From Patescibacteria group bacterium (GTDB lineage: Bacteria; Patescibacteriota; Patescibacteriia; Veblenbacterales; UBA10138), in assembly GCA_041648575.1 (NCBI GenBank), contig JBAZOT010000006.1:11893-75892 (forward strand): DNA of 64,000 nt, in the 5' to 3' direction. The notes beneath the pieces are model-generated. The model saw only the letters and a program-made list of their open reading frames with translations, searched no databases and was not told the origin of the DNA. The translations under genes and the position numbers were made by a program. This document shows, in pieces, positions 4,729 to 52,285 of this stretch. The first letter of the stretch is position 1, and the number at the start of each line of letters is the position of its first letter.

Positions 4729-4799
4729 TCGGGCTGCTGGGAATTGAACCCAGTCTTCGCGCACCCGAAGCGCGCGTACTACCGGTATACTACAGCCCG
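4729..4799 (-). tRNA. tRNA-Pro (anticodon CGG), no encoded CCA
   Basis: Minus-strand cloverleaf: acceptor CGGGCTG/CAGCCCG, D-stem GTAT/GTAC, anticodon stem CGCGC/GCGCG, loop TTCGGGT (G37), T-arm CTGGG-TTCAATT-CCCAG. Confidence 0.8.
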
Positions 4800-4851
4800 T
4801 AATAAATTACTTTATCAAAAAAAATTATAATTGTCTATATATCATTTTCAA

Positions 4852-6780: not shown

Positions 6781-6830
6781 TCAAATCATTGTCAAAAACA
6801 TAGGCTTCTATGCCTATGTTTTTGTTTTAA

Positions 6831-8048: not shown

Positions 8049-8085
8049 ATAGTTGATTGATTAATAATTAATTATTTAAGTTTAA

Positions 8086-9189: not shown

Positions 9190-9290
9190 ATATTAATTAT
9201 ATAACACAATAAATTATTATTATATAAGCTGCTAAAATCGGTTGATGATAATGCTAATTTTGCATTTATCATCACAGGAAGGCCAATTAA

Positions 9291-38389: not shown

Positions 38390-39089
38390 GGTGTAACGAA
38401 GTTATGCTTATATCTTGAAATAATTCAGCTTGTTTAACAATTATTTCCCGCTGTTTAACCAATTCCAATAAAGCAAGAAATGACACTATTAATTCTGTTT
38501 TATCTTTGGCTTCAGCCACAAAAGTATACCAATTTAAATGCGCTTTAGCTAGTATTTTCCTTTTTAAATCCTGAATTTTTTCATTAATTGAAATGGCCTT
38601 GGTCAAGGTAATTTGAGGCAATTTAATAATCGGCTCTAATTTCTTTAATACCACTTCCCAAACCTGCTTAAGCGTAGCACTGGTTAAACCGTGGGGCGGA
38701 GTAAATTTCGGCTCGTCTTTTAAAATTAATGGTTTGTCGCGGCCATACATCACCTGCTGGCGATTCCACATACGATTTACAACCTTAGATGCTTCTAAAA
38801 ATTCTTTGTATATCTTTAACTGCCGCTCCAGTTCTTGCTCTTCCTCTTCACCGCCCAAATGCAGCATTGGCAGCAGCACGCGCGATTTGATTAATAATAA
38901 TTTTGATGCCACTACTAAAAAATCCGCCACTTCATCAGGATTTAAATCAGTAGCTTGCTGAAAATACTTAATGTATTGTTCCGTTACCTGCGCCAAACTC
39001 ACTTCGGTAATATCAAGCTTTTCCTGCTCAATTAATTGCAGCAGAACGTCAAGAGGCCCTTGAAATTTTTCTATATTAATTTCGTGCAC
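38379..39089 (-). CDS. scpA: Segregation and condensation protein A (kleisin)
   Basis: FQGPLDVLLQLIEQEKLDITEVSLAQVTEQYI N-terminal ScpA motif. Overlaps scpB by 11 bp as is typical. Confidence 0.85.
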   Translation of the reverse strand: MHEINIEKFQGPLDVLLQLIEQEKLDITEVSLAQVTEQYIKYFQQATDLNPDEVADFLVVASKLLLIKSRVLLPMLHLGGEEEEQELERQLKIYKEFLEASKVVNRMWNRQQVMYGRDKPLILKDEPKFTPPHGLTSATLKQVWEVVLKKLEPIIKLPQITLTKAISINEKIQDLKRKILAKAHLNWYTFVAEAKDKTELIVSFLALLELVKQREIIVKQAELFQDISITSLHHEN

Positions 39090-39182
39090 AATAAAAATTT
39101 AAAATTAAAAAACTTATTACCTTTCATACCGCTATCGCGGAATAATATTAAAAATACAAAAAAGCGTAGCAGGAGTGGGGTT

Positions 39183-39231
39183 GTTAGGGGTAGGGGACGG
39201 CCTTCGCAATTCTAAGTCCTCTACCCCTAAC
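39183..39231. repeat. Palindromic element GTTAGGGGTAG...CTACCCCTAAC (copy 1 of 2)
   Basis: 11-bp perfect stem with a 27-nt loop containing TTCGCAA. Second copy at 62439-62486 with the loop containing TTGCGAA. Confidence 0.5.
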
Positions 39232-39242
39232 AAAAAAGAAAA

Positions 39243-39710
39243 TTATTTCTTCTTCGCAAAATTAACCAACTTCCCTCCCACTGCTTTAACCAAATCTTTG
39301 GCTTTTAAATGCAGTGACTCTTCAAAACTGCCAGCTTGTGCTACCACTTTTTGCGTTTTTAAAACTGCCTTATCTACATAAACTGGAATTTTGTGCAATG
39401 GCCCGTGCATGGCAGAAATCGCACCCGGTTTAACTTTAAATAACTTGGTCATTATATTTTCCTTATCAATCTCAACCTTCTTGGCGCCAGTTTCCTTTTT
39501 CAAAGCTTTAAAATCAACTTGGTGCGACGCTGGCAATAAAACAATTGCATGTTCTTTATCGGTCTTAACCACCAATGCTTTTACCACTTCATTTAATTTC
39601 TTTTTTAAAGTCTGCGCTAAATCATAAGCTGTATAAACGGTTTTGTGTTTAACTACGTCGTATTTAATTTTATTTTTGTTTAGGAAATTTTTGACTTTAG
39701 CTGGAATCAT
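39243..39710 (-). CDS. YbaK/ProX-like aminoacyl-tRNA deacylase-domain protein
   Basis: 155 aa, K-rich, ...VVKTDKEHAIVLLPASHQVDFKALKK...GAISAMHGPLHKIPVYVDKAVL consistent with the YbaK fold pattern. Moderate confidence. Confidence 0.5.
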   Translation of the reverse strand: MIPAKVKNFLNKNKIKYDVVKHKTVYTAYDLAQTLKKKLNEVVKALVVKTDKEHAIVLLPASHQVDFKALKKETGAKKVEIDKENIMTKLFKVKPGAISAMHGPLHKIPVYVDKAVLKTQKVVAQAGSFEESLHLKAKDLVKAVGGKLVNFAKKK

Positions 39711-39743
39711 ATGATTTTGAATTAAGAATTAATACATTAAAAT

Positions 39744-39830
39744 TTATTTTGGATTTTGATTTAAATTTTGCATTATTATCGCTTCTTTCCCCTCCTTATT
39801 TATAGCTTCATTAATAAAAATACGGTTCAT
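39744..39830 (-). CDS. 28-aa upstream ORF that is a copy of the aspS N-terminus (MNRIFINEAINKEGKEAIIMQNLNQNPK), ending 34 bp before ybaK-like
   Basis: Nucleotide block CCTTATTTATAGCTTCATTAATAAAAATACGGTTCAT matches the true aspS start at 44191-44227. It falls in the intergenic gap between the ybaK-like gene and the lipoprotein gene at 39834. Confidence 0.4.
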   Translation of the reverse strand: MNRIFINEAINKEGKEAIIMQNLNQNPK

Positions 39831-39833
39831 AAA

Positions 39834-40886
39834 TTATTTATCAAAAAATTTAATATCTCTTGCTATCTCATCGACTATTGCTTCATATTCTTTACTACCA
39901 AACCACGAAACTCCATAGACATAACTATCTTGGAAAATATAAATTATGCCTCTGGTATAATCATAAAAATTATCCCAAGTAATCCTATATGCCTCGTGAT
40001 TATCAATAGGGCTTAGGCTCACTCTTTCCTTGACGGTTGGCATCGGCGGAACACTATCCTTTTCCTCAGCAGAAATATCTCCCTCTATTTCTTTCATTAT
40101 AAAATTATCAACCGACAAACCAATTCTATCAATTACTCCGAAATTCAAAGATGGCTGCCACAATTCGTTATCTACAAATTCTTGTTCACAAACTCTAACT
40201 GACATTAAAGCACTACCCCAACCTCCGGGACCACAATCTAAAAACTTTGTTGGGTATTTTAATTCAAACCCATATTCCTCATTCCGATAAGTTTTCCAGG
40301 TGGGGATATCGATTATTGATGTCAAACTCGGCTCAATGAATTTGAAGGTGGAGAGGATTTGATTAAAAATGTCATCATACTTTCTATCAAGTCTGAAACC
40401 AAAATATAAAGTTGCTTTATAGTCACCTTGCACGATGTAGGCTAAATACTGCTCAGAACCGGGCGCACGCGTCTGCACCACCACCTCACCATTTTTTGTA
40501 CTAACCGTTCGAAGAGTTTCGTAAGTAAACCAAACAGGAAGAGACGACGCCGACTCCTTTTGATTCTTATAATTAATGACAAAAATAGTAATGCCGCCTT
40601 CTATGGGTATTTGTAATTCTGGTTGGAGAGAAGGAGCTAAATAAACTCCGTTATTTATTAATTTCAGATACCACAGCGAGGGATACTCAAACTCAAACCC
40701 ATATTGCTCATTACGGTAGGTTTGCCAAGTGGCGGTATCAAGGGTATTATCGGTTATAATCGGCTGTTCAATAATTTGATTCTGCTTTTCCAAAAGCACA
40801 CTACAGCCCGCAGTTATAAACAAAACAAACAATATAGCAATAATTGTAATGATTGATGAATTGAGATAATGATTTTTCATATTCAT
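39834..40886 (-). CDS. Lipoprotein, YRNEQYGF-repeat family (paralog 1, two repeats)
   Basis: Signal peptide plus lipobox ITAGCS. WQTYRNEQYGFEFEYPSLW and WKTYRNEEYGFELKYPTKF modules. Confidence 0.5.
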   Translation of the reverse strand: MNMKNHYLNSSIITIIAILFVLFITAGCSVLLEKQNQIIEQPIITDNTLDTATWQTYRNEQYGFEFEYPSLWYLKLINNGVYLAPSLQPELQIPIEGGITIFVINYKNQKESASSLPVWFTYETLRTVSTKNGEVVVQTRAPGSEQYLAYIVQGDYKATLYFGFRLDRKYDDIFNQILSTFKFIEPSLTSIIDIPTWKTYRNEEYGFELKYPTKFLDCGPGGWGSALMSVRVCEQEFVDNELWQPSLNFGVIDRIGLSVDNFIMKEIEGDISAEEKDSVPPMPTVKERVSLSPIDNHEAYRITWDNFYDYTRGIIYIFQDSYVYGVSWFGSKEYEAIVDEIARDIKFFDK

Positions 40887-40942
40887 AGTTTTCTATTTAG
40901 GCAAGTAAGAAAGTAGTTAACGAATGCAAGCGCTCGAACCAC

Positions 40943-41266
40943 TTAATTTTTCATTTTAGATTTTGAATTTATTTTAAACGGTAATGCTTGCTGCTCACCT
41001 AACAATTTGCGCGCAACGCGCCGGCCTTTGGCTGTTAATTTTACTTCTTTAATATACCATTTATGCGTTGTCCTTTCACCAAAACCAACCATCAACTCTT
41101 TATCAATTAAACTTTCTAAACTTTTAGTTATAATACTTACAATATCATCTTTTTTAGGTCTTTTCTTTTGAACATCATAAAATCGCGTGAAACCTTTACG
41201 GCTAACCTTAGGTTGTCGGGAGTAACATGTACGCAGGATGTATTTTTGTAATGGAGAAAGTCTCAT
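40943..41266 (-). CDS. Small basic hypothetical protein
   Basis: 107-aa K/R-rich ORF. No motif recognised. Confidence 0.3.
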   Translation of the reverse strand: MRLSPLQKYILRTCYSRQPKVSRKGFTRFYDVQKKRPKKDDIVSIITKSLESLIDKELMVGFGERTTHKWYIKEVKLTAKGRRVARKLLGEQQALPFKINSKSKMKN

Positions 41267-41483
41267 AGTTAGTTCCTAGTTCCTCGTTCCTGGCCATTAG
41301 CCAAACTTTGGCCTAGTTTATTTAACATTCTCATATTTAAAATATAAAGTATTCAGACTTGCCGCTATTACGAAGGGTTAGTGCGGCATATCCACCCACC
41401 GGCTCGCCTCGCTGCGAAGCAGGTAGGCAGATTAAATTTTGCATTATTACGGCTTCTTTAATATAAACACGTTTCATATTTTT

Positions 41484-41759
41484 TTATTCGCGCGAATTAG
41501 AAATGGTCGGAAGTAGTAATTTAACTACTAATGGGAGAGAATCGGAAAGGTGATAGTACACAGTCAAGCTTTCTTGGCGCCGATCAATGATATCAAGGTT
41601 ATGTAAAAGACTAAGGTGTTTGGAGGTAGAGGTAAACGACAGACGAATGTGGTCAGCGATACTGGCAACTGGCAACTCCTTGTGGCGAGTAAGTAGCTTA
41701 ATAATCGCCAGCCTCCGACGATTTGCTAACCCTTTTAATATTCTTTCTAATTGTTTCAT
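41484..41759 (-). CDS. ArsR-family winged-helix transcriptional regulator
   Basis: LANRRRLAIIKLL...PVASIADHIRLSFTSTSKHLSLLHNLDII. Flanked on both sides by the palindrome TTCTAATTCGCGCGAATTAGAA (about 41493-41512 and 41790-41812). Confidence 0.7.
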   Translation of the reverse strand: MKQLERILKGLANRRRLAIIKLLTRHKELPVASIADHIRLSFTSTSKHLSLLHNLDIIDRRQESLTVYYHLSDSLPLVVKLLLPTISNSRE

Positions 41760-41832
41760 AAATACTGCTAATATTATATCATACTTTCTAATTCGCGCGA
41801 ATTAGAAAGTATACTTGTATAATAATAATTCT

Positions 41833-41910
41833 GTCACACATACACCCAACCTTTGAGCAAAATTTCTTTGCTCTTTTTATTTATAGCTTCGTTAATAAAA
41901 ATACGGTTCA
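41833..41910 (-). CDS. 25-aa ORF copying the aspS N-terminus (MNRIFINEAINKKSKEILLKGWVYV)
   Basis: Same conserved nucleotide block, in the gap between the lipoprotein paralog 2 stop and the ArsR-like gene. Confidence 0.35.
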
Positions 41911-41919
41911 TAATGAATG

Positions 41920-42687
41920 TTAATTATTTTGACAATCTTCAGGACAATTAAGAGGGCCGCAGTCGGTAGTGGCTATACCGCCACCAACATTCGAGGGAAC
42001 GCATCTTTCGTAATCTTCACAAACGTCATCACCGCAAACCGCGCATTGTTCTGTTATAACACCATTGCGCTCATAGTTGCCACAACGACTATCTGAGCTA
42101 TTACTCGGCTCAATGAATTTGAAGGTGGAGAGAAAAATTTTAAATTCATCTTCAATGCCCGTATCATAACCACTAGCAAAAATAAAATATTGGTTAGTAC
42201 CTTGATTTACTTGCGCTTCCAAATAAATTCGCCCCCGATTATACTCTTCTGTACTCTTTGCAGAGGTTAAGACCACCTTAATACCACCAACTTCAATCTG
42301 TTCAGGCAACTTATATTGAACTGACTCTTCTTGGGGCCCGTTAACCATAATGGGATTAATATTAATACCGAAGAAGGTGTCGGTATTAGAAAGACCAATG
42401 GGGTGCCAAAAAATACTATCATTCTCATCAAAATCCTTTACAAAACTATTCGGATACTTCACCTTAAATCCATACTGCTCATTACGGTAAGTTTTCCAAT
42501 CCGTTGTATCAGTTGAACTAATTGGATTGAGTTGATTCCGTTGATTTAAATCTACTTGCTTTTGCAAAATCACCGCACAACCAGCAGCTATGAGCAAAAC
42601 AAAGACTATGGTTATGGTGGCAATAAAGGATGAAGTAAAGAGATATTTTCTTAGATTCATATAATTAGCGCTCTTTCTGGTTGTCAT
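41920..42687 (-). CDS. Lipoprotein, YRNEQYGF-repeat family (paralog 2) with Cys-rich C-terminus
   Basis: Lipobox IAAGCA, WKTYRNEQYGFKVKYPNSF module, C-terminal CAVCGDDVCEDYERCV...CPEDCQNN. Confidence 0.5.
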   Translation of the reverse strand: MTTRKSANYMNLRKYLFTSSFIATITIVFVLLIAAGCAVILQKQVDLNQRNQLNPISSTDTTDWKTYRNEQYGFKVKYPNSFVKDFDENDSIFWHPIGLSNTDTFFGININPIMVNGPQEESVQYKLPEQIEVGGIKVVLTSAKSTEEYNRGRIYLEAQVNQGTNQYFIFASGYDTGIEDEFKIFLSTFKFIEPSNSSDSRCGNYERNGVITEQCAVCGDDVCEDYERCVPSNVGGGIATTDCGPLNCPEDCQNN

Positions 42688-42750
42688 TCCGGATTTAGTC
42701 CGGAATCTAGAAATTTTTTCTAGATCTTGAAACCAGTTCAGGATGACAAT
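42682..42750. mobile_element. MITE-like element with TGTCATTCC...GGATGACA inverted ends, between aspS and lipoprotein paralog 2
   Basis: Nested hairpins TTCCGGA-TTTAG-TCCGGAA and TCTAGAAA-TTTT-TTCTAGA. Homologous copy at 46881-46960 between asnS and paralog 3. Confidence 0.5.
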
Positions 42751-42796
42751 CCAATTATAAATTTAAATGTAAAAATCAAAATTAAAAATTAATTTT

Positions 42797-44227
42797 TCAT
42801 TTTGTTTTTTGATTTTTTAATTCTAGCCCCAATTCATCTAATTGCCCCTGAGTTACTTCTGACGGTGCACCCATTAAAGGGTCACGGACATCGCCAGTTA
42901 AGGGAAAGGCAATTACTTCGCGAATATTTTTCTCCCCTACTAAAACCGCTATCAGGCGATCCAAACCTGGAGCAACCCCCCCATGTGGCGGCACGCCGTA
43001 TCGGAACGCTTCAATTAAATGGCTGAATTGCTGTTTTTGCTCAACTGTAAAACCAATTAAATCCCAAATTTTTTCCTGAACCAGAGAATCGTGAATTCTA
43101 ATACTACCGCCACCCACCTCATAACCATTAAGCACTAAATCATGCTGATACGAATGTGCTTTTCCCGGATCAGAATCCAACAGCGGCAAATCCTCTTCTT
43201 TGGGCGCAGTAAACATATGATGCGACGGCGCCCACTGACTTTTTCCAGAACCATGAAAAAAATCTTCCTGAGTTTGTTTAGTAAACAATGGAAAATCAAC
43301 TACCCAGGTAAAAGCCAACTCGCTAGGATCGTTTTTATCTTTTCTTAAATCCGGCTTATCTGTGTCATACTTAGTCATTACTTCATCCCATTTTAACCGC
43401 GGCCACGGTGTAAAAGTAATTTTTTTATCTGGCAATAATTTTTTAACTAACGAAGTAAACATTTCTTCTGTCAGCTGTAAAATTTCCTCTTGGGTAACAA
43501 ACGACATTTCCATATCAATTTGATAAAATTCGCCTGGGGATCGGTCCGCTCGCGCATCTTCGTCTCTAAAGCACGGCGCAATTTGAAAATATCTTTCTAT
43601 ACCCGCCACCATTAATAATTGTTTGTATTGTTGGGGGCTTTGAGGTAAGGCAAAAAACTTTCCCTGATGCACTCGTGATGGTACTAAATAATCGCGCGCA
43701 CCCTCGGGTGTAGATTTAGATAACATCGGGGTTTGGATATATGTAAAACCGCGGTCGGTTAAATAATCAATTACATATTTAATTACATTGGAACGTAATT
43801 TTATATTGCATGCCATGCGCTGGTGGCGCAAATCAAGATAACGATATTTAAGCCGCAGTTCTTCTGAAGCTTGCCTTTCTTCATTATCAATTTCAAATGG
43901 TGGGGTTTCAGATTCGCTGATAATTTCAACAGATGAAGCCAATACTTCTACTTTACCACTTGGTAAATTAGGATTTTCATTGCCCTTTTTCCTAACTTGT
44001 ACTTTTCCTTTTATCGCCAAAACAAACTCGGGGCGAATTTTGGGCATAGCTTCACGACCCACATCATCCAATTCTGCTGGAGCTAACACCACTTGCATCA
44101 AGCCCGTCATATCGCGCAAATCAATAAAGGCAATTTTACCCATATTCCGTCGAGCGTTCACCCAGCCTTTAAGTAAAATCTCTTTACCCTCCTTATTTAT
44201 AGCGTCGTTAATAAAAATTCGGTTCAT
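42797..44227 (-). CDS. aspS: Aspartyl-tRNA synthetase
   Basis: Class II aaRS: N-terminal OB (KEILLKGWVNARRNMGKIAFIDLRD), motif 2 FRDEDARADRSPGEFYQIDMEMSF, motif 3 GGGSIRIHD...GVAPGLDRL. 476 aa (short, non-discriminating-type length). Confidence 0.9.
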   Translation of the reverse strand: MNRIFINDAINKEGKEILLKGWVNARRNMGKIAFIDLRDMTGLMQVVLAPAELDDVGREAMPKIRPEFVLAIKGKVQVRKKGNENPNLPSGKVEVLASSVEIISESETPPFEIDNEERQASEELRLKYRYLDLRHQRMACNIKLRSNVIKYVIDYLTDRGFTYIQTPMLSKSTPEGARDYLVPSRVHQGKFFALPQSPQQYKQLLMVAGIERYFQIAPCFRDEDARADRSPGEFYQIDMEMSFVTQEEILQLTEEMFTSLVKKLLPDKKITFTPWPRLKWDEVMTKYDTDKPDLRKDKNDPSELAFTWVVDFPLFTKQTQEDFFHGSGKSQWAPSHHMFTAPKEEDLPLLDSDPGKAHSYQHDLVLNGYEVGGGSIRIHDSLVQEKIWDLIGFTVEQKQQFSHLIEAFRYGVPPHGGVAPGLDRLIAVLVGEKNIREVIAFPLTGDVRDPLMGAPSEVTQGQLDELGLELKNQKTK

Positions 44228-44232
44228 AAATA

Positions 44233-44721
44233 TTATTTAGTTATGGAACTACTTATTCTTCTTCGTTTCCCATACCAACCTATAACAGCAGTACCTGCAA
44301 GTACACCCACGCCAACTAGACTATAAAGTATTGTATTAGACCTTGTACTTTGGGTAGGGCCATTTCCCGACGGACAATATTGTGGCCTTCCTTCACGGGG
44401 TTTACACGTGTAGTTCAAAGTAACCTCTTTATAACCCGAAGGACACTTTTGGCTATCAGTAGATTTCCACGTCCATGGTTTATCGCACTGAGTACATTCA
44501 TCTCCTTCAGAAAACCAGGCACACTCTTTTGTTAAATTATTAACAATATACTGAATTTGTGCAGTAGTACCATATGTTATCCGCGGAATAATTAACAATG
44601 ACGAAACCAGAACGGCAAAAGAAATGAATTTACATATGCGCGACTGACCCTTATTTATAGCTTCGGTAATAAAAATACGATTCATAAATAGTTTAATAAA
44701 GTTTAATCCAATACTTGACAA
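44233..44721 (-). CDS. Cys-rich membrane/secreted protein whose 5' end contains an in-frame copy of the aspS N-terminus (MNRIFITEAINKGQSR)
   Basis: Internal Met at 44685 starts the aspS-like block, followed by a signal-like helix (ICKFISFAVLVSSLLIIP), 8 Cys and a C-terminal TM (LVGVGVLAGTAVIGWYG). Confidence 0.4.
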   Translation of the reverse strand: MSSIGLNFIKLFMNRIFITEAINKGQSRICKFISFAVLVSSLLIIPRITYGTTAQIQYIVNNLTKECAWFSEGDECTQCDKPWTWKSTDSQKCPSGYKEVTLNYTCKPREGRPQYCPSGNGPTQSTRSNTILYSLVGVGVLAGTAVIGWYGKRRRISSSITK

Positions 44722-44775
44722 CCCTATACACTATGCTACTATATTAGTATCACTATGAAAAAGACCCTGATAAGG

Positions 44776-45282
44776 TTAGTCCTTATTGGGGGCTTTTTCT
44801 ATTACTTTCCGAATTTCTAGTTTAGCACGCTGGGTGGCAAGATATACTATCGGGATATTAAGTTTACGCAGCAAAAAAGAGCATTTCATATTAGGCGATA
44901 CCAAACAACGAAATGTACCGCGCTCTTTAAGAAACTTTACCAACCCAGCATAATCCCCATCGCTTGATACTAATACTGCTTGCTCAAATCGTTTCTCATA
45001 AAAATCCGTCGTAACTTTAAGCACCAACTCAGCATCACAATTGCCTTTTACTCTGCCAGCACCATCATAAGTTACCTCTTTATACACCAAAGTATAGCCA
45101 GCTTCTTGTAAACTAGTGTACAAATCTTTATTCTGTGAAATTAATCCAATAAACAAATAAACCGTGTCTACGCCGTATTTATCATTGAGCCAGACTCTAA
45201 AACGCGCATAATCCAAACCCCAACCAAGGTCATGAACACCTTTGTGCAAATTAGCAGCGTCTATGTAAGCGTTTACTTTCAT
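44776..45282 (-). CDS. NYN/LabA-like domain protein (putative RNase)
   Basis: MKVNAYIDAANLHKG...VYLFIG...VLVSSDGDYAGLV (NYN acidic residues pattern). 168 aa. Confidence 0.65.
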   Translation of the reverse strand: MKVNAYIDAANLHKGVHDLGWGLDYARFRVWLNDKYGVDTVYLFIGLISQNKDLYTSLQEAGYTLVYKEVTYDGAGRVKGNCDAELVLKVTTDFYEKRFEQAVLVSSDGDYAGLVKFLKERGTFRCLVSPNMKCSFLLRKLNIPIVYLATQRAKLEIRKVIEKAPNKD

Positions 45283-45288
45283 AATTAA

Positions 45289-45369
45289 TTAACTTGCATT
45301 CACCCAGCCCTTGAGTAAAGCCTCTTTCCCTTCCTTATTTATAGCTTCGTTAATAAAAATGCGTTTCAT
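45289..45369 (-). CDS. 26-aa upstream ORF copying the aspS N-terminus (MKRIFINEAINKEGKEALLKGWVNAS), ending 7 bp before the NYN gene
   Basis: Conserved block CCTTATTTATAGCTTCGTTAATAAAAATGCGTTTCAT. Confidence 0.4.
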   Translation of the reverse strand: MKRIFINEAINKEGKEALLKGWVNAS

Positions 45370-45377
45370 AAATAATG

Positions 45378-46811
45378 TTAGTTAGCTGGTGACCGGACTG
45401 GCTTAAATATTGGCTCTACTAATTTTACTAGTGGCGCGTTTTGCAGTTTACAAATCCATCCTAACTCTTGTCCTTGAGGTGTACTCACAACGACACCATA
45501 AGCTGGACCTCCTGGCATATAAATGGACGAATACGATAACCCCAGCGAGTCTAGCCATACCCGAGCAGAAGCTTCAGTAGTTCCGTCTTTAAATGAAACC
45601 TGTAGCTTACCTGGCTCGTATACTTTCGTAAAGCCATCAGGTGTTGTAACGTCAAAATTGACATACCGTTTTTTCCATTCATTTATACAGGCCGATATAT
45701 CTGGAGTAGAAGAGTTAGAGCTCGTTTCATCAATAAATTGGACAATTTTACAAGCACCTACAGCACATTTAGTGGGAAAGTACTGAATACAGCTCTCCGC
45801 AGTCGGGGGCGGTAACTCCGGACATGCGACTCCTGGGGTTAGCTGTTTTTTGAGTTGCACCTGCTTGGCGCGCTCTTGATTATAAGCTGGCAGGTAACTT
45901 CGATTAATTGCATTAGTTGGACAATTATTTTGGCACACATCGTTGAGTGCGTAAACCGCCGTGCAGTCACTGTCCTGTGTACACTGATACCAGCCTGCAT
46001 TGCTGGCACTTGTAAGTGGCTCAATAAATTTGAAGGTGGAGAGGATTTGGTTATAAATTTTTTGATATTTCTCAAGTTCATTTCCTGAGGGACCACTTCC
46101 ATATGTGCTAGAAAGTTTCCCATCAATATAATTTCTTGTACCTCCGTCGAAAATGATCGAATATTGTTTCCCATTTTTTACAAAGCTGGTTTGAGTGCAT
46201 TCTTCTGACCAACAACCAATACTCAAGTCTCCCTTAAGTTTATATTGGGACGCTTGTTCTCCTGCCACTGAAAGTATTTTTTCAGCACTAGCTAGCGTTC
46301 CGTATTGCCATCCAGGATTATCTATTACAACAGATACGTTATAAAAATATTTGTTCGTAACTTTAGAGTTGGGAATGGCCACCCCAGCTGTTTCCGCGCT
46401 CTCAAACTCGGCATATATATCTCCAGAATCAGAATTGATAATTTTCCATTCAGATGGATACTTCACCTCAAACCCATACTGCTCATTGCGGTAGGTTTGC
46501 CAGATGGAAGTATCAACATCGGCATTTTCTTCCATTGGCTGCCATCCACTCCTAAAACCCCTACCACACACCTCTTCAAAAGTTTTACCCTCTGGAATAA
46601 CATCACACATAGCAATACCACATGACTTACCGGTTGCCTGCTCACACTCTTCCTGAGATAAATATGTTTGCGGTGCTATACGCACGGCGTCGGGTGACTC
46701 TTTATTTTGATACTGCTTTTCCAAAAGCACGCTACAGCCAGCGGCTATGAATAAAATAAACAACACAGCAATAACTGTGATGACTGATGAATTGAGATAA
46801 TGGTTTTTCAT
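45378..46811 (-). CDS. Lipoprotein, YRNEQYGF-repeat family (paralog 3), Cys-rich
   Basis: Lipobox IAAGCS, WQTYRNEQYGFEVKYPSEW, more than 20 Cys. 477 aa. Confidence 0.5.
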   Translation of the reverse strand: MKNHYLNSSVITVIAVLFILFIAAGCSVLLEKQYQNKESPDAVRIAPQTYLSQEECEQATGKSCGIAMCDVIPEGKTFEEVCGRGFRSGWQPMEENADVDTSIWQTYRNEQYGFEVKYPSEWKIINSDSGDIYAEFESAETAGVAIPNSKVTNKYFYNVSVVIDNPGWQYGTLASAEKILSVAGEQASQYKLKGDLSIGCWSEECTQTSFVKNGKQYSIIFDGGTRNYIDGKLSSTYGSGPSGNELEKYQKIYNQILSTFKFIEPLTSASNAGWYQCTQDSDCTAVYALNDVCQNNCPTNAINRSYLPAYNQERAKQVQLKKQLTPGVACPELPPPTAESCIQYFPTKCAVGACKIVQFIDETSSNSSTPDISACINEWKKRYVNFDVTTPDGFTKVYEPGKLQVSFKDGTTEASARVWLDSLGLSYSSIYMPGGPAYGVVVSTPQGQELGWICKLQNAPLVKLVEPIFKPVRSPAN

Positions 46812-46880
46812 ATTGATAGTTTCCTATTTAGGCAAGTAAGAAAGTATTTTATTACTATTTGTTAAGAGTTGTCTTTTTGG

Positions 46881-46960
46881 TGTCATTCCGAATTTATTTC
46901 GGAATCTTGAAAAAATTATCTGGTTTGTTTCTAGATCCTGAAACAAGTTCAGGATGACAG
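46881..46960. mobile_element. MITE-like element (second copy), followed at about 46985-47005 by a partial GCTCGCAATGAC-type TIR
   Basis: TGTCATTCCGAATTTATTTCGGAA...GTTCAGGATGACA. Same position relative to an aaRS gene as copy 1. Confidence 0.5.
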
Positions 46961-47019
46961 TGAAACGAGATTGCTTCGTCTCCGCCGGTTGGCGGATCCT
47001 CGCAATGACAATTTAATAA

Positions 47020-48309
47020 TTATGGTCTTAATCTATTTAATAATCTTGGGAAAGGGATGGTTTCACGAACATGAGCTAGTCCGCAGATCCATGCTACCAC
47101 ACGTTCCAAGCCAACACCAAAACCCGAATGCGGCACGCTGCCATATTTTCTTAAATCCAAATACCACTGAAATGGCTCTATGGGTAATTTGTGTTCTTTC
47201 ATGCGTTTTAGCAACTCATCATAATCATCTTCACGCTGGCTACCACCAATAATTTCGCCATAACCTTCGGGCGCTAATAAATCAGCGTTTAAAACGCGCG
47301 TAGGATCTTTAGGATCGCGCTTCATATAAAAAGCTTTAACTTCGCTTGGATATTTTTCCACAAAAATTGGTTTGTCGTACATTTTAGTTAAAATAGTTTC
47401 ATCATCTGCGCCTAAATCATCATTATCTTTAATATCACTCCCCTGCTCGCGTAATTTCTTAATAGCTTCAGTATGAGTAATTCTATAAAACGGCGGTTTG
47501 ATATTTTGCAAAGGTTTAAGATCACGCTCTAAAATTTCCAGCTCTTTTTTATTATCAGTCAAAACTTTGTTAACTATAAAACTGATTAAATTTTCCTGAA
47601 TAATTAAATTTTCTTCGTGCTCCACAAAAGCCGCTTCGGCATCCATCATCCAAAATTCCGTTAAATGCCTGCGAGTCTTGGATTTTTCTGCACGAAAAGT
47701 AGGACCAAAATCAAACACCCGTCCAAATGAAGCAATAGCTGCTTCTAAATAAAGCTGGCCTGATTGGGTAAGGTAAGCTGGTTCGTCAAAATAATCAATC
47801 TTGAAAAGTGTGGTAGTGCCTTCGCAAGAAGTGGGTGTTAAAATCGGCGAATCAATTTTAATAAAACCTTCACTATTTAAATGTTCATAAATTGCATTGA
47901 TAATAGTATTGCGGACGCGTTGAATTGCCCATTGTTTAGGCGACCTAAGCCACAAATGGCGATGATCCAACAAAAAATCAGGCCCGTGCTCTTTTTTACC
48001 AATAGGATATTCCCCGGCTTTTTGTACTAAAGTCAGACTTTTGGCTTGCAATTCGTATTCATCTTTTTTAGGATGTTTAGAAATTACTCCGGAAACTATG
48101 ATAGATGATTCTAAAGTTATACTTTGGGCTATTTGCCAGGATTTTTTATCTACTTCTTGCTCACTGACCACCACCTGCACCCAACCTTGGCCGTCACGCA
48201 ACTCAATAAAGTAAATTTTACCAGAGGAGCGGACATTGCTAGCCCAACCGCGTAAAGCCACTTCCTGCCCTGTAAAATCCTTTAAATTATCAGTAAAAAT
48301 ATATTTCAT
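47020..48309 (-). CDS. asnS: Asparaginyl-tRNA synthetase
   Basis: Class IIb aaRS: N-terminal OB (VALRGWASNVRSSGKIYFIELRDG), motif 2 FGPTFRAEKSKTRRHLTEFWMMDAE, motif 3 GSVPHSGFGVGLERVV. 429 aa. Confidence 0.9.
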   Translation of the reverse strand: MKYIFTDNLKDFTGQEVALRGWASNVRSSGKIYFIELRDGQGWVQVVVSEQEVDKKSWQIAQSITLESSIIVSGVISKHPKKDEYELQAKSLTLVQKAGEYPIGKKEHGPDFLLDHRHLWLRSPKQWAIQRVRNTIINAIYEHLNSEGFIKIDSPILTPTSCEGTTTLFKIDYFDEPAYLTQSGQLYLEAAIASFGRVFDFGPTFRAEKSKTRRHLTEFWMMDAEAAFVEHEENLIIQENLISFIVNKVLTDNKKELEILERDLKPLQNIKPPFYRITHTEAIKKLREQGSDIKDNDDLGADDETILTKMYDKPIFVEKYPSEVKAFYMKRDPKDPTRVLNADLLAPEGYGEIIGGSQREDDYDELLKRMKEHKLPIEPFQWYLDLRKYGSVPHSGFGVGLERVVAWICGLAHVRETIPFPRLLNRLRP

Positions 48310-48428
48310 GGTGAATATAATTTACCATTTTTTAACTGTTTTGGCAAAATAAAAAAACCTTCCACTAATCAGTTAATTATAAAACTATTAGTACTAAAGT
48401 GCTAACGGTCAAACGATAAAAGTAATAG

Positions 48429-49853
48429 CTATTTTACCTCCTGCCATGACAACAGTTCATATTGGTCGCTGGTTAAAGGAAAGCTGGGCGGCGGTCCATA
48501 CAACAAGTTGGTGTCATAATTAATGTTACGTGTCTGATAACCAGTGCCGTCAGTATAAGCAAAACCATAACGCTGGTTGGTGGCAATCATCCCGTTCAAA
48601 GTAATGACTTGCCTGACATAATAAGACCCGCAATTTGATGCGTAGTAGTAACGGCCCACCCGGCCGTTCTTAGCCACTAAAGCACCATCAATCTGTAAAT
48701 TATCTTCGCTACGCAAACCCACATTAATATTCTTTTGAGCTAACAACGCTAGGGTTTCTTGGCCATCATAAGTAGTATAAAGTATGTCGTCATTAACTGT
48801 AATACTGGTATTGGTAGTGGGGTTTTCCGGAAAACGAGCAGAAGTAATGGTTAATCTAGCAGTCTGCAAATTGCCAGACACCCAGACATTATCTTCCACG
48901 AAAATTAAACCATTGGCTGGCAAAGGGTTGTTGCTTTGCCAAGTCTCACTTCTAATACTCCAAGTACCCCAGCCGTCTTGGCTGGATGAACAGCCGCCAG
49001 CGGGACTGTATAATTGGGTAACAAGATATAAATCAAAAGTATCGCTAGTTTGTAGAACAATATGGTAACCTAAACTGCCTGAGTTGGTAAGATAAATACC
49101 ACTACTTTGGGCGTCAGTTTTAATCTGAGCTAAATCAGCTGATAGTCCAGGAAAATCTACTGCTGGCATGGGAAATTGACGGCCAGCCGCAAACACATCA
49201 GGGCGACTGGGTACAGCCGCTGGCGGCAAAGGGTCAACCAGGGAAACGTGCGTATGCACACCAAATTCGTTAGCGCCCGTATGGTCAGGGTCATTATAAT
49301 TTTCTTTAGCGCTGGTAATTAAATTATGGATTAAACCGTCAAAACGAATGCCACCATTAGAATGTACTGGCCCAAAGACTTCCGTACCCGAACCAAAACG
49401 CATATCAGCATTAGCGACCACCGCATATTTAGCCAATGAGGGAACTGCCATCTTTACCCTAATAACTCGTTTATGTTCTAAATAGGCAATAGTGGAGCCG
49501 GTGGAGGTAATGGTTACTAAAGTGGTGCCAACTGGCGGCGGAACGATCTCCAAACTGAATTGCCCAATCACATTGCCGTCTTTATCATAAAATGGATGCG
49601 CATAAGGACCTGGCTGGCCAGTACCGTCCTGATAATCTTGGGGGCTATGCGCTAAATGCCAACGATAATAATTAACTCCAGCTTCCGCAATTTGAAAAGC
49701 CAGCTCGCTGGCATGTTTATAACGCACCAATTTTAGATTAGCAATTGACCAATTAGCCAAACCGCTAATTAACAAAGCGCCAATGGCACCAAAAACCAAA
49801 GTTAGTATTAAAATTGCTCCTTGAGGACGATAGTTAATAGCGTTCCGCTTCAT
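48429..49853 (-). CDS. Pilus-associated protein with N-terminal TM (PilX-like/minor pilin-like), large beta-rich body
   Basis: N-terminal GAILILTLVFGAIGALLISGLA hydrophobic segment, T/S/G/N-rich body. Overlaps the next pilin-like gene by 4 bp. Confidence 0.4.
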   Translation of the reverse strand: MKRNAINYRPQGAILILTLVFGAIGALLISGLANWSIANLKLVRYKHASELAFQIAEAGVNYYRWHLAHSPQDYQDGTGQPGPYAHPFYDKDGNVIGQFSLEIVPPPVGTTLVTITSTGSTIAYLEHKRVIRVKMAVPSLAKYAVVANADMRFGSGTEVFGPVHSNGGIRFDGLIHNLITSAKENYNDPDHTGANEFGVHTHVSLVDPLPPAAVPSRPDVFAAGRQFPMPAVDFPGLSADLAQIKTDAQSSGIYLTNSGSLGYHIVLQTSDTFDLYLVTQLYSPAGGCSSSQDGWGTWSIRSETWQSNNPLPANGLIFVEDNVWVSGNLQTARLTITSARFPENPTTNTSITVNDDILYTTYDGQETLALLAQKNINVGLRSEDNLQIDGALVAKNGRVGRYYYASNCGSYYVRQVITLNGMIATNQRYGFAYTDGTGYQTRNINYDTNLLYGPPPSFPLTSDQYELLSWQEVK

Positions 49854-50473
49854 AAATTATCTTTTAAATTTCGCAAATTAGCCTTAGTTGTTAAAATGAA
49901 GGCCGCTGGAGGTAAATTAAGATAACGATCCACTTCTAACTTAATTTGCACCAATCTGACGGCACTTATGTTCACGGGAAAAGTTAAAGGGTTACCGGTG
50001 CCTTGGTAGTTCTGATCAAAATAACTAAAAATGTCAGCGTTACGAACATAAGCCACAGCATCGCTGATCTGCTCATTAACCGGATTATAAGTTAAAGGAT
50101 TGCCGCTGGGTTTAAGCACTGCCCGCTTTAAAGTGGTACCAGCTAAAAAATACCTTAAACGTTCTACTAAGCTATCACTGTCAATATTACTATAAAAAGT
50201 AAGGGAGGTAGCTTGGGCTTCAGCTAAAGAATAAGCGCCAACACTGGAAATAGCAGCAGTGCGTAATTCATTAACCAATCCCGATACCGTTCGTTTGGTA
50301 TCTTGCGCCTGAATTAAAGAGGTTGACATCTCTCGATTGCTCTTGAAAACATCGGTGGTAAAATTGCCCACGGCTATTATTAACAAAGAAAAAATGGATA
50401 TGGTAATAACTAGTTCCAAAAGATTGAAACCTAGGGCAGAAAAAATAGAATTTTTATTGGTAAAACTAACCAT
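49850..50473 (-). CDS. Type IV prepilin-like protein (minor pilin/pseudopilin)
   Basis: Class III signal: ...SALGFNLLELVITISIFSLLIIAVG (G|F-x-x-x-E). Confidence 0.55.
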   Translation of the reverse strand: MVSFTNKNSIFSALGFNLLELVITISIFSLLIIAVGNFTTDVFKSNREMSTSLIQAQDTKRTVSGLVNELRTAAISSVGAYSLAEAQATSLTFYSNIDSDSLVERLRYFLAGTTLKRAVLKPSGNPLTYNPVNEQISDAVAYVRNADIFSYFDQNYQGTGNPLTFPVNISAVRLVQIKLEVDRYLNLPPAAFILTTKANLRNLKDNL

Positions 50474-50476
50474 AGT

Positions 50477-52285
50477 TTATTCGGGTAACAACCGAACTTC
50501 CCAAGATACCCAATTAGGTGTTAAATCAACCTGAGCAGTAGCTATTTCATAACCAGCTAAAGAAATTTCCAGGTCGTAAACCGCACTAGACAAACCTGTA
50601 AAATAAGCTTGTCCGGGCGGAACACAGCCAGAAACAAAAGTAACAGCTAATTCAGATAAATTAGGCGTATAGCCATCATCATCAGTAGTAAGTGATACTT
50701 TATAACGCAAATAACGGTCGTTACTATGTACTGAACTGACTGGTTGACCGCTGGTAGTATAATAAGTACCTGCCGTGCCATCAGGACCAACAAAATTCCA
50801 AATGATATTATCATTATTAGTCGCTAATTGAAATTTTATCGGCGTGGCCCCAGTTTCTGATGGCTGGTCGCCCGGTTGCCACTCAATAGTAGTAAAATTA
50901 CTAACAGCTCCTGTATCAAAAGTTGAGGAGATTAATTCGCCGTTAATCTCGTAAGTATTGCCGTGCTTTGCTAATTTTAATTCACCCACCGGGTTACTGG
51001 TTTCTATATTACCATCATCACTAAAATATTTGCTATCATCAATAAAATCTTCCTGACCACTACCGCCTTGCCAAGTGGTCTGCCGCAAATAACCACGTCC
51101 GGTAAGTTTAATCTCATCAAAGCCGGGTTTGGTCACATGTACACTGGCGCCGCTTAAGGGTAATTGGGTAGCGGTGTCGCGTACTATAACATGCAAGCTG
51201 TGGGGATTGGCATTCTGTACCACCAGTGTTAAATCCTGACTAGAATCAGGTGCTAAATTAAGCGGCAGTAAAGGAATGGTGCCCAGTAAGTCATAGGTAT
51301 CACCCAAAAGGGAGGCATAATAAGAATCCCAATCCAAATTACTAACCGTAAGATTGCCAACAGCATTGGTAATTAAATCTTGGTCATACTTTAAAACATC
51401 AGGCTCGGTACCAATCAGCTTGCTGCCTTTAAGATTAAAATCAACATAACCAACACCCACACAGGTTAAACTAAGAGAAGTTACTTCCAACTGACTAAGC
51501 CGGTCAATGGTCAAGGTTACTTGAGTTACTTGCCCACTTACTACAGTGGCATCGGGTTGGTTGGGGTTGGGGTTACTAGGATCTTGAGGTGGATAAGTTT
51601 GGTCTTGGGTATAACCAGTTTTAATAGCCACTATATGATAGCTTTCAACGGCTGGCGGCACATCTACCAATTGCAGCATACCGTCATTGTTAGAGGTGTC
51701 ATCAATTGTCAATGCTGGTATTAAAATATTATTTTCCACATGAATATTAGCTCCCGGCACTGGCTGGCCATTAGCATTAACCACCTGAATAAATAAAGCG
51801 CCATTATTACCAGTAGTTTCCAAAAACTTAGGTGTTACTTGAGTAGAGAGTTGCTGTGTGACAAGATAAGAATAAGTGGGACAGCTTACCTCCACAACCA
51901 CCAACTTATAATCAGCCGGTGCAGTATCATTAGGCGTGCCGCCAATAACCCCATCAAAAGGGTCGTCAATATTACGTATCACATAGCGCACTTGCCAATC
52001 TATATCACCACGACTGATAGTTTGCAACGCCGGCAAAACCCCAACTGGTAAACCTCCCTGAATACCAACTTGGTCATAAGGCAAGTTGCGAGCTATTTCC
52101 AGATACTCACTGCTAATGGCTGTAGCTTGCGCGCGCATGCGGGAATTTAGACTAATTTTAAATAATTGAAGGAAAGCGCTATAAATAGCAATAGCGATAA
52201 CGGCAAAAATCACTATACCTACCAACACTTCCATTAAAGTAAAGCCTCTTATTAACATTTTTCTTTGTAGAAATTTACCTGGCAT
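50477..52285 (-). CDS. Large type IV prepilin-like protein (pilin N-terminus + ~570 aa beta-rich adhesin-like body)
   Basis: MLIRGFTLMEVLVGIVIFAVIAIAIYSAF (G|FTLxE prepilin signature). Confidence 0.55.
   Translation of the reverse strand: MPGKFLQRKMLIRGFTLMEVLVGIVIFAVIAIAIYSAFLQLFKISLNSRMRAQATAISSEYLEIARNLPYDQVGIQGGLPVGVLPALQTISRGDIDWQVRYVIRNIDDPFDGVIGGTPNDTAPADYKLVVVEVSCPTYSYLVTQQLSTQVTPKFLETTGNNGALFIQVVNANGQPVPGANIHVENNILIPALTIDDTSNNDGMLQLVDVPPAVESYHIVAIKTGYTQDQTYPPQDPSNPNPNQPDATVVSGQVTQVTLTIDRLSQLEVTSLSLTCVGVGYVDFNLKGSKLIGTEPDVLKYDQDLITNAVGNLTVSNLDWDSYYASLLGDTYDLLGTIPLLPLNLAPDSSQDLTLVVQNANPHSLHVIVRDTATQLPLSGASVHVTKPGFDEIKLTGRGYLRQTTWQGGSGQEDFIDDSKYFSDDGNIETSNPVGELKLAKHGNTYEINGELISSTFDTGAVSNFTTIEWQPGDQPSETGATPIKFQLATNNDNIIWNFVGPDGTAGTYYTTSGQPVSSVHSNDRYLRYKVSLTTDDDGYTPNLSELAVTFVSGCVPPGQAYFTGLSSAVYDLEISLAGYEIATAQVDLTPNWVSWEVRLLPE

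Follow-up and report, generated by a model that had tools for sequence, protein, structure and literature searches.

Copies of the aspS start as probable relics of gene gain between asnS and ybaK in a CPR lineage

The aspS gene of the window, by which we mean the whole 64-kb stretch of DNA analysed, lies in a variable locus bordered by an asnS-like gene and a ybaK-like gene. The start of aspS (its first 37 to 84 nt) is present five times at this locus, the functional gene included, and always on the minus strand. Read along that strand, the features are as follows.

47020-48309, minus: asnS-like class IIb synthetase, the conserved left border; it shares 77-88% identity with the gene that lies 5′ of the variable region in related genomes L164, L167, L168, L163 and L003
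46874-46959, minus: hairpin-rich element 5′ of lipoprotein 3, repeated 5′ of lipoprotein 2 (42675-42748); repeat families D11/D12 (82-91%), inverted repeats I2/I6
45378-46811, minus: lipoprotein paralog 3, PsbP_2-like
45289-45369, minus: relic c5, aspS codons 1-25 then a stop; 8 nt past the lipoprotein 3 stop
44776-45282, minus: NYN-domain gene, cargo (Pfam NYN, E = 7e-12); 89% identical to the NYN of L164, L165 and L166; a terminator-like hairpin (44765-44791) lies at its 3′ side
44686-44775, minus: spacer orthologous to the NYN-aspS intergenic region of L164/L166, compared side by side, and thus the ancestral aspS upstream region
44649-44685, minus: relic c4, aspS codons 1-12, now the start of the Cys-rich gene; the site of the intact aspS start in L164 and L166
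44233-44648, minus: body of a Cys-rich secreted or membrane protein, lacking a start codon of its own and in frame with c4 (joint ORF 44233-44685, 150 aa)
42797-44227, minus: functional aspS (c3), 476 aa, Pfam tRNA_anti-codon and tRNA-synt_2; homologs 76-89% identical; its first 84 nt (44144-44227) are the repeat template
41920-42660, minus: lipoprotein paralog 2, PsbP_2-like, Cys-rich C-terminus
41828-41911, minus: relic c2, aspS codons 1-28, with TGA at codon 26
41476-41812, minus: region of an ArsR-type HTH gene (41484-41759; Pfam HTH_5), 85% identical to the ArsR directly 5′ of aspS in L165; the palindrome TTTCTAATTCGCGCGAATTAGAAA (inverted repeat I4) lies on either side of the gene
41337-41477, minus: relic c6, a degraded mini-aspS with head joined to tail, 46-codon ORF; the site where aspS follows ArsR in L165 and L172
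40943-41266, minus: orf107, a conserved gene 3′ of aspS in relatives; 65-81% identical in L164, L165, L163, L167-L169, L003 and L083
39834-40886, minus: lipoprotein paralog 1, PsbP_2-like, two domain repeats
39744-39830, minus: relic c1, a mini-aspS with codons 1-16 in frame with sequence resembling the 3′ end of aspS and the spacer that follows it
39243-39710, minus: ybaK-like tRNA_edit gene, the conserved right border

A 37-nt pattern taken from the aspS start, with up to three mismatches allowed, matches the window exactly five times, with ATGs at 39830, 41911, 44227, 44685 and 45369. It has no match in 100 shuffles, and the chance expectation is 0, confirming the five copies reported in the first-pass annotation. 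A sixth copy, c6, is degraded and begins at 41477 (MKRVYIKEAVIMQNL...) with 65% identity. All are direct repeats in a single orientation, with cargo in between. The earlier descriptions of the short reading frames hold with small corrections. The c2 frame (25 codons) occupies 41834-41911, its previous coordinates having been off by one, and c1 is a 28-codon frame at 39744-39830 that ends 33 nt, not 34, before the ybaK-like ATG. The 26 codons of c5 (45289-45369), stopping 7 nt short of NYN, and the in-frame fusion of c4 to the Cys-rich protein, with Met at 44685, are just as described. The c2 stop is a CGA to TGA change at codon 26 within the homologous stretch, so the copies are not all intact. 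Alignment for a shared unit yields a common beginning but no common end: homology starts ~5-15 nt 5′ of the ATG in all copies and runs to +37 in c4, +49 in c1, about +75 in c5 and +84 in c2. Two further assemblies show this arrangement at 100% identity, which rules out an assembly artefact. No gene besides aspS has start-only duplicates in the 64-kb window, and such duplicates are rare at other genes in a scan of 1624 ORFs.

Across related genomes, aspS, asnS and ybaK are conserved; the genes between them differ in each of 14 genomes. Relics of the aspS start occur in seven of the 14 genomes of this Veblenbacteria-like clade, the window counted, and close relatives carry up to four (two in L164, one in L165, one in L167, four in L168, two in L170 and two in L172). 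All five relics in the window and all 12 across these six relatives lie on the aspS strand. Among ~150 more distant CPR loci, relics were found at three: L006 (two relics; the cargo is an AbrB-like/PIN pair), L007 and L111. Toxin-antitoxin pairs, NYN, ArsR, PsbP-like lipoproteins and RuBisCO are among the cargo.

The gene that precedes each relic is, in some relative, the direct upstream neighbour of an intact aspS (NYN, ArsR, Cys-rich or lipoprotein). For example, the NYN-spacer-aspS segment of L164/L166 aligns with NYN-spacer-c4 of the window as far as aspS +37, and the ArsR-operator-aspS segment of L165/L172 aligns with ArsR-operator-c6. In these relatives, the intermediate state, a junction with the anchor still intact, can be seen directly. 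Similarly, the lipoprotein 2 C-terminus, which c2 follows, is homologous to a 113-aa protein that lies directly 5′ of intact aspS in L083, and also to the 457-aa protein preceding relic 6090 in L168. In L164, the relic-NYN pair comes after a 512-aa protein with which the C-terminal 109 aa of lipoprotein 3 share 60% identity. This pair recurs in L164 (9308) and L165 (288), and the relic-operator-ArsR layout of c2 recurs in L172 (relic 6693). The order of Cys-rich gene then aspS is also found in L003, where a distant Cys-rich homolog with its own N-terminus lies directly 5′ of aspS. The c4-Cys-rich fusion protein itself has no counterpart in a database of 5.8 billion proteins.

Some of the copies have arisen through duplication. 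Relics c1, c2 and c5 each lie 3-8 nt past the stop of one of the three paralogous PsbP-like lipoprotein genes, whose promoter and signal-peptide ends are repeated as well (147 nt at 88%; 74-86 nt at 82-91%). The lipoprotein 3 promoter and signal-peptide region (46703-46849), for instance, is 88% identical to that of lipoprotein 1. The tail of c1 aligns to the aspS 3′ end with a score of 37 (shuffles 20.4 +/- 3.7), a relic tail in L170 also matches the aspS 3′ end and downstream spacer, and the c1 junction (EAIIMQNL) is found in L170 (627) and L168 (7734). Judged from sequence, c1 and c6 are aspS copies with the middle deleted. L168 has a tandem-duplication junction, where relic 6090 (+87) is followed by the asnS tail with 176 nt of downstream sequence (96.6% identity). 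Consequently, duplication followed by deletion forms part of the history of the locus. Segmental duplication of the aspS region followed by deletion, proposed earlier as the observation that would undo the idea of a short unit, accordingly applies only to part of the array: to the relics that end repeated lipoprotein units, and to the internally deleted c1 and c6. The c4-Cys and c5-NYN joints lack the tandem-duplication signature of homologous flanks with the end of one unit joined to the beginning of the next.

The differences between relics and their resident aspS retain the imprint of coding sequence. They fall at codon positions 1, 2 and 3 in the ratio 60/34/162, a 63% share for third positions (p = 1e-22), where neutral drift of the relics would yield roughly 44% on a rough estimate. 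In-frame stops are present in 3 of 19 relics. Together, the third-position excess and the stops indicate decaying fragments of diverged alleles, not maintained peptides. By direct count on the c5, c3 and L164 aspS start sequences, c5 is 95% identical to the intact L164 start and 86% identical to its own c3. Likewise, the L165 relic is 97% identical to the first L164 relic (R1) over 36 nt, between genomes that are saturated at synonymous sites. The relics therefore appear to come from diverged alleles, that is, from horizontal input, rather than from the resident gene. The first-pass annotation took the mostly conservative changes to mean that the copies are maintained, not decaying. This was too strong, given the stops, and because derivation from different functional aspS alleles explains the excess of conservative changes. 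One caveat applies: orthologous relics are 80-91% identical, as against synonymous sites near saturation between genomes (pS 0.5-0.8), suggesting that relics are under constraint, undergo conversion by the resident start, or pass from genome to genome.

We consider it probable that the copies are what remains of earlier aspS 5′ ends, and for two of them of an entire aspS copy, and that they have piled up at an asnS-aspS-ybaK gene-gain hotspot of this CPR lineage. DNA from a related strain or a sister chromosome would pair with the conserved body of aspS, and its other end would be joined to the resident gene within ~100 nt of the start, illegitimately or by way of a relic already there. An incoming piece made up of a cargo gene and its own aspS start would thus restore an intact essential gene, and the old start would remain upstream as a stub. 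Repeated rounds would build the series X-relic-Y-relic-Z-aspS. Relics and the conserved lipoprotein signal-peptide ends, acting as direct repeats, may then promote further unequal crossing-over, duplication and deletion, and such crossing-over could generate whole extra aspS copies, later shrunk to the head-tail stubs c1 and c6. As a side effect, a relic would hand the aspS promoter and start codon to an inserted gene, as in the c4-Cys-rich fusion. We infer this serial displacement from its end products, no recombination step having been observed. Three relics lie 3′ of the functional aspS, where simple upstream stacking does not explain them, so an additional history of duplication and deletion is assumed. 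Natural competence has been demonstrated in CPR Saccharibacteria (PMC10633639).

Expression offers another reason for keeping such copies. The aspS promoter, start and first codons might be selected in front of cargo genes to supply transcription and translation starts or translational coupling. A Shine-Dalgarno-like motif precedes just 7 of 58 genes, many ATGs have TATAAT ~6-8 nt upstream, and host mRNAs are probably leaderless. Relic c4, 3′ of the ancestral aspS spacer, offers the Cys-rich gene its only plausible start codon and is co-opted as the predicted start of that gene. Some relic frames end close to the next gene (7 nt for c5 and 2 nt for L164 R2), L164 R1 overlaps it as ATGA, and the conservation of orthologous relics beyond synonymous sites would suit selection. 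However, the internal stops count against this explanation, gaps from relic frame to next gene range from 2 to >100 nt, and most relics lie 3-8 nt past the upstream gene, not behind a promoter. Leader-like conservation in front of the same gene has a single exception in its favour, the relic before NYN, which is kept in three genomes (the window and both relatives in which that region is assembled, L164 and L165). Before ybaK, a relic is absent from all 13 other clade genomes. At best, selection on expression would explain retention and not origin, and we regard it as unlikely. A portable initiation or leader-peptide module, one of three explanations offered by the first-pass annotation, is not supported as the reason for the copies, given the missing ybaK relics, the stops, and the irregular frame lengths and gaps. 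The aspS-start copies are probably recombination scars, not a designed leader module.

Of those three, the evidence supports the hotspot for recombination in the 5′ end of aspS. The remaining one, in which an inserting element duplicates its target, describes the outcome correctly, with new genes between old and new aspS starts; no element with its own recombinase is seen, and breakpoints spread from +33 to +99. In its fullest form, this option would have an integrase encoded elsewhere act on an attB in the aspS 5′ end, with integrase-less cassettes, each carrying a substitute aspS start, integrating in tandem. Such cassettes would leave direct repeats in one orientation around cargo, and the cargo (toxin-antitoxin pairs, PIN/NYN nucleases) is typical of mobile elements. 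Relic-NYN, relic-TA, relic-ArsR and relic-lipoprotein junctions recur across genomes with differing upstream neighbours. Stub ends form loose clusters (+33, 36-39, 45-49, 63-69, 75-78, 84-87 and 99), of which those near +36 and +78-87 extend to distant L006; ends near +36 and +84 turn up in unrelated lineages, a hint of greater site specificity. Yet a fixed core predicts one end point, not a spread, one junction (L168) is plainly a tandem duplication, and two relics are internally deleted whole genes. Pfam searches found no tyrosine or serine recombinase in the cargo or in 10 neighbouring proteins within ~15 kb, a scan that leaves outside it ~35 more distant window genes, and the precomputed gene tables of 10 related loci contain none. 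We therefore find site-specific cassettes quite unlikely. For the reading as relics of former aspS ends, the breakpoints carry a cost of their own: every head-only relic stops between +33 and +99 of the 1431-nt gene, where random breakpoints would not be so confined, and one has to assume in addition either that longer AspRS fragments are selected against or that breakpoints prefer this stretch.

A purely local history, in which a lipoprotein-aspS segment was tandemly duplicated in one lineage and then eroded by deletion, with no horizontal input and nothing special about the aspS start, would suit the three relics that end lipoprotein units, the L168 joint and the head-tail deletions in c1 and c6, but is very unlikely in view of the third-position excess, the closer match of c5 to another genome's aspS than to its own, the near-identity of the L165 relic and L164 R1 despite synonymous saturation, the c5-NYN and c4-Cys junctions with no duplicated cargo on the other side, and the independent toxin-antitoxin cases in distant phyla.

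Gene-end repeats at insertion hotspots are known from other systems. Tandem islands bounded by partial tRNA or tmRNA copies, and SCC in rlmH, target 3′ ends, require a recombinase and carry repeats of constant length. As at aspS, direct gene-end repeats border successive insertions at one hotspot; here, in contrast, the 5′ end is used, no recombinase was found and lengths vary. An integron was also considered and seems unlikely, as no integrase was found and the repeated unit is the start of a coding gene without palindromic symmetry. Islands at the dusA 5′ end (Farrugia et al. 2015, PMC4482086) likewise insert inside a conserved gene start that the inserted DNA restores, and displaced and restored ends form direct repeats around cargo; those islands use a dedicated tyrosine integrase and one crossover site, whereas no integrase was found here and end points vary. 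The serial displacement proposed here mirrors the Rhs/CDI/T6SS effector-immunity displacement arrays, for which the suggested route is homology-facilitated illegitimate recombination (Kirchberger et al. 2017, PMC5361080, with the studies of Rhs C-terminal displacement that it cites). In these orphan-module arrays, too, a conserved gene segment serves as homologous anchor beside a variable region, the displaced end stays adjacent with a piece of the anchor gene in the same orientation, serial horizontal events are recorded, and no integrase is involved. The aspS locus is their mirror image, with the anchor downstream and 5′ stubs accumulating upstream; its anchor is an essential housekeeping gene, not a polymorphic toxin, its cargo is unrelated to anchor function, and its stubs are very short (33-99 nt). 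Experiments on naturally transformable bacteria of other phyla have demonstrated homology-facilitated illegitimate recombination (de Vries and Wackernagel 2002; Prudhomme et al. 2002; both as cited in PMC5361080). There, as proposed for aspS, a homologous anchor and a nearby illegitimate joint integrate foreign DNA, which fits the irregular left junctions, the in-frame c4-Cys fusion included. Unlike the process as described, joints at aspS are confined to the first ~100 nt of the anchor, and the mechanism is read from sequence.

The locus thus represents a readable record, in which each aspS stub would mark one gain event beside an essential gene with no visible mobile-element machinery. The genomes of CPR bacteria (Patescibacteria) are tiny and tightly packed, and how they gain genes is poorly understood. 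Our results suggest that, in several CPR lineages, recombination can end repeatedly at the start of a housekeeping gene, and that a stub can be reused to begin a new gene. A core gene with start-only duplicates is a simple sequence signature for finding similar hotspots, and the pattern suggests a gene-insertion design for the few transformable CPR bacteria. We speculate, tentatively, that the stub might even act as a portable left homology arm, with aspS as the right arm, of an integrase-free CPR cassette system. If so, a relic-cargo unit taken up by natural transformation could enter any related genome at aspS, where a housekeeping promoter and a leaderless start codon would automatically precede its cargo. 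Such a system would account for the recurrence of relic-cargo junctions in varied contexts, for relic similarity above neutral, and for the repeated breakpoints.

The host is a small uncultivated CPR bacterium, and the cargo at the hotspot comprises surface lipoproteins, toxin-antitoxin pairs, nucleases, regulators and RuBisCO.

Pattern search recovered the 37-nt block that opens aspS five times in the window, with at most two mismatches and on the minus strand each time, and none of 100 shuffled sequences held a match to it. The five copies of the aspS start described in the first-pass annotation are thus borne out, as are, by translation, the ORFs that it had drawn. Repeat finding added a sixth, weaker copy (c6, 65% identity). 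The host is a CPR bacterium near Candidatus Veblenbacteria, and two further public assemblies carry the identical arrangement. All genes at the locus lie on the minus strand. Below, c3 is the intact start, the other copies are termed relics, and nucleotides (+) are counted from the aspS ATG.

Gene order at the aspS locus, 5' to 3' on the minus strand
asnS, 47020-48309, minus
lipoprotein 3, minus
relic c5, 45369, minus, similarity ending at about +75
NYN gene, minus
relic c4, 44685, minus, similarity ending at +37, fused to a Cys-rich protein
aspS, 42797-44227, minus, intact start c3 at 44227
lipoprotein 2, minus
relic c2, 41911, minus, similarity ending at +84
ArsR gene, minus
relic c6, 41477
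orf107, minus
lipoprotein 1, minus
relic c1, 39830, minus, similarity ending at +49
ybaK, scpA, scpB and tpiA, minus

Aligning the copies together with their flanks, as had been proposed, showed similarity setting in only 5-15 nt before each ATG and ending at a different point in each relic. The c2 ORF ends through a CGA to TGA change within the homologous part. Start-only duplicates of genes other than aspS were absent from the whole window, where the remaining internal similarities are those of ordinary paralogs. The three lipoproteins are PsbP_2-like paralogs with repeated promoter and signal-peptide ends and different bodies. The aspS gene is a short form of 476 aa that lacks the large insertion domain usual in bacterial AspRS, and stands in tandem with the paralogous asnS-like gene (about 26% identity between them).

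We gathered 160 aspS loci from genomes and metagenomes, and ten closer ones via a protein database (L-numbers). The frame asnS ... aspS ... ybaK-scpA-scpB-tpiA is kept in all of them, and the intervening genes vary by genome. The earlier suggestion of a recombination hotspot in the aspS 5' end is supported. Among close relatives, each locus was queried with its own aspS N-terminus.

Relics in close relatives, with aspS identity to the window
L164, 86%, two relics
L165, 88%, one relic
L167, 82%, one relic
L168, 82%, four relics
L170, 77%, two relics
L172, 76%, two relics

No relics were found in L003, L083, L163, L166, L169 or L171, some of which have little assembled upstream sequence. Three of about 150 more distant CPR loci carry them. 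In L006 (Doudnabacteria) there are two, and a toxin-antitoxin pair (AbrB-like and PIN) separates relic from aspS; in L007 there is one, its cargo (the accessory genes of the locus) being an AT-rich 82-codon ORF; and in L111 a single 13-codon stub stands 70 nt 5' of aspS. Bar aspS/asnS paralog cross-hits, other start-only duplicates are almost absent among the 1624 ORFs of these loci, a scan in which L007 aspS was lost to a longer shadow ORF (the locus is GC-rich), making the counts lower bounds and the enrichment rough.

The variable interval also holds other genes. L168 has a full RuBisCO large-subunit gene (7842-9314) as cargo between asnS and aspS, and L163 a 148-aa RuBisCO N-terminal fragment (9558-10004) directly before aspS. 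A unit of two overlapping genes (74 aa, DUF6290-like; 87-90 aa, RelE/ParE/HigB-like) with its own TTGACA/TATAAT promoter lies at L168 9511-10004, L170 132-616 and L172 3769-4253, and its nucleotide identity across these loci (80-82%) is above that of their aspS genes (71-74%). In L166, which at 89% aspS identity is the closest relative, the slot 3' of aspS (2217-6094) encodes a 667-aa protein, then bAvd, then a reverse transcriptase; these make up a diversity-generating retroelement within the variable locus.

Compared with the resident aspS start, the 19 relics show 60, 34 and 162 differences at first, second and third codon positions. The third-position share is 63% (p = 1e-22), against about 44% expected, by our own estimate, had each relic arisen in place and then drifted. 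This excess indicates that the two sequences diverged mostly while each belonged to a working gene, which argues that relic and resident start are different alleles brought together. An allelic origin is consistent with the similarity of c5 to the intact aspS start of L164 (95%, against 86% to the window's own, counted by hand). It is likewise consistent with the relic of L165, which is 35/36 identical to R1, one of the L164 relics, even though synonymous divergence among these genomes approaches saturation (pS 0.5-0.8). L083 and L003, the nearest sequenced relatives, were rejected as sources of the relics on identity: relics are 81-89% identical to the window's own aspS and 65-84% to theirs. 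Between window and L164, dS is about 0.9 for asnS and NYN, and 1.7 to saturated for aspS, orf107 and ybaK, a contrast that may point to a recombination boundary close to the start of aspS.

The first-pass annotation had also considered a maintained leader module. This is not supported, as three of the 19 relics have in-frame stops and the divergence pattern is that of different alleles; judged by their sequences, the relics do not appear to be maintained peptides. Orthologous relics are nevertheless 80-91% identical, a conservation well beyond that expected of neutral sites, which calls for an explanation by gene conversion from the resident start, by exchange among genomes, or by a function of the relics.

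The gene preceding each window copy is the direct upstream neighbour of intact aspS in some relative. For example, the terminator and spacer 3' of NYN match the NYN-aspS spacer of L164 and L166 base for base. Because this alignment spans the ATG and reaches +37, where the Cys-rich sequence takes over, c4 is an old aspS start. A piece with most of the Cys-rich gene and a new aspS start would have been inserted at +37. The Cys-rich homolog in L003 possesses an N-terminus of its own and is the immediate upstream neighbour of aspS; the window gene is without a start of its own and uses the ATG of c4, behind the ancestral aspS upstream spacer. A homolog search with the fusion protein returned that protein alone. 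Similarly, ArsR and its flanking palindrome are followed by c6 in the window and by aspS in L165 and L172. The relic-palindrome-ArsR layout is common to c2 and L172 (relic 6693), and the C-terminus of lipoprotein 2, with c2 after it, has counterparts in L083, a 113-aa protein ahead of intact aspS, and in L168, a 457-aa protein ahead of relic 6090. The relic-NYN pair of c5 is common to the window, L164 and L165, and the relic-toxin-antitoxin units of L168, L170 and L172 have one common junction, relic then TTGACA promoter. Relics c1 and c6 share a junction after codon 16 (EA[I/V]IMQNL) with a 37-codon ORF just upstream of aspS in L170 and with L168 relic 7734. Past this junction the sequence is similar to the 3' end of aspS with its downstream spacer: the c1 tail aligns to the aspS 3' end with a score of 37 (shuffles, 20.4 +/- 3.7), and the L170 tail matches the window's aspS downstream spacer clearly by eye. 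We conclude that c1 and c6 are complete aspS copies from which almost all of the gene has been deleted in frame.

We consider serial displacement at an anchor gene the simplest account of the relics. The conserved aspS body would pair with incoming or sister DNA that brings cargo and its own aspS start, and the far end of this DNA would join within the first ~100 nt of resident aspS. This would leave aspS intact and strand the old start upstream. The irregular left junctions, one fused in frame into the Cys-rich gene, are compatible with an illegitimate joint. Natural competence is documented in CPR Saccharibacteria (PMC10633639). Type IV pilus/pseudopilin genes (PilX_N, N_methyl; window 48429-52285) adjoin the variable locus immediately upstream of asnS, a circumstantial pointer to competence here. 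Once formed, relic and aspS could act as two homology arms, and the relic-cargo-aspS unit could enter other genomes via ordinary recombination. Such transfer would explain identical relic-cargo junctions with differing upstream neighbours.

Local events contribute too. L168 relic 6090 (+87) runs directly into the final 40 nt of asnS plus a further 136 nt, with 96.6% identity to the real asnS end, and marks a tandem-duplication joint; L164 R1 is followed by a lipoprotein start 98% identical to that of the neighbouring lipoprotein. Lipoprotein signal-peptide ends and relics look like two fixed arms for swapping variable lipoprotein bodies. Head-only relics without exception stop within +33 to +99 of the 1431-nt aspS, in loose clusters near +36 and +78-87, distant L006 included; this could reflect a preferred joint region, erosion, or selection against AspRS N-domain fragments of greater length. 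Three relics downstream of functional aspS occur in the window only, and require at least one extra aspS copy, later reduced.

Among known systems, the displacement arrays at Rhs, CDI and T6SS loci come closest, and we rate the aspS stack a variant of these: it is mirrored, at an essential synthetase gene, and has unrelated cargo. Islands of the dusA type share a 5'-end target and a restored gene start, but need an integrase and a fixed site, neither of which was found at the aspS locus. Neither the cargo nor the scanned neighbours within about 15 kb include a recombinase, and a search of published work turned up no relevant account of aspS as an integration site. A Xer/dif-like or palindromic recombination site within the repeat was set aside because, judged from the sequence, the symmetry is weak. 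A known RNA was ruled out by an Rfam scan of 38500-48500 (E <= 1), where the sole match was a spurious miRNA-precursor on a hairpin element.

Only 7 of 58 window genes have a Shine-Dalgarno-like motif upstream, and many have a TATAAT-like box ending about 6-8 nt before the ATG, making leaderless or coupled translation likely in this host; the many boxes suggest widespread leaderless mRNAs. Sigma-70-like sites showed no excess in the promoter/terminator scan (24 found, 27 expected), and the repeat itself had no called site on the gene strand. A TATAAAT inside the repeat was accordingly dropped as a conserved promoter; neither L164 R1 nor the L165 relic retains it. Some relic ORFs stop 2-7 nt before the next start or overlap it, and the supply of starts by relics is plausible as a secondary use, not as the cause of the pattern.

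The small ArsR-type gene stands between two copies of a perfect palindrome, TTTCTAATTCGCGCGAATTAGAAA (window 41476-41503 and 41785-41812), which recurs beside aspS starts in L165 (about 2530-2555), L172 (about 6775-6800 and 7100-7120) and L168 (about 3575-3600), in the last even without an ArsR gene. It is probably the ArsR operator, and aspS or neighbouring cargo would then be ArsR-controlled. A hairpin-rich element of about 85 nt lies upstream of lipoprotein genes (window 42675-42748 and 46874-46959), with nested palindromes TGTCATCC...GGAATGACA, TCTAGAAA...TTTCTAGA and TTCCGGA...TCCGGAA; L165 has a comparable sequence (about 1180-1260). The element could act as a terminator or small RNA, or be a miniature repeat element. 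In this otherwise 38% GC region, GC-rich hairpin-like stretches occur at window 41380-41430 and about 46965-47010 (CTGCCTACCTGCTTCGCAGCGAGGCGAGCCGGTGGG, 3' of c6, and GTCATTGCGAGGATCCGCCAACCGGCGGAGACGAAGCAATC, 3' of asnS), and resemble dispersed repeat elements of CPR genomes.
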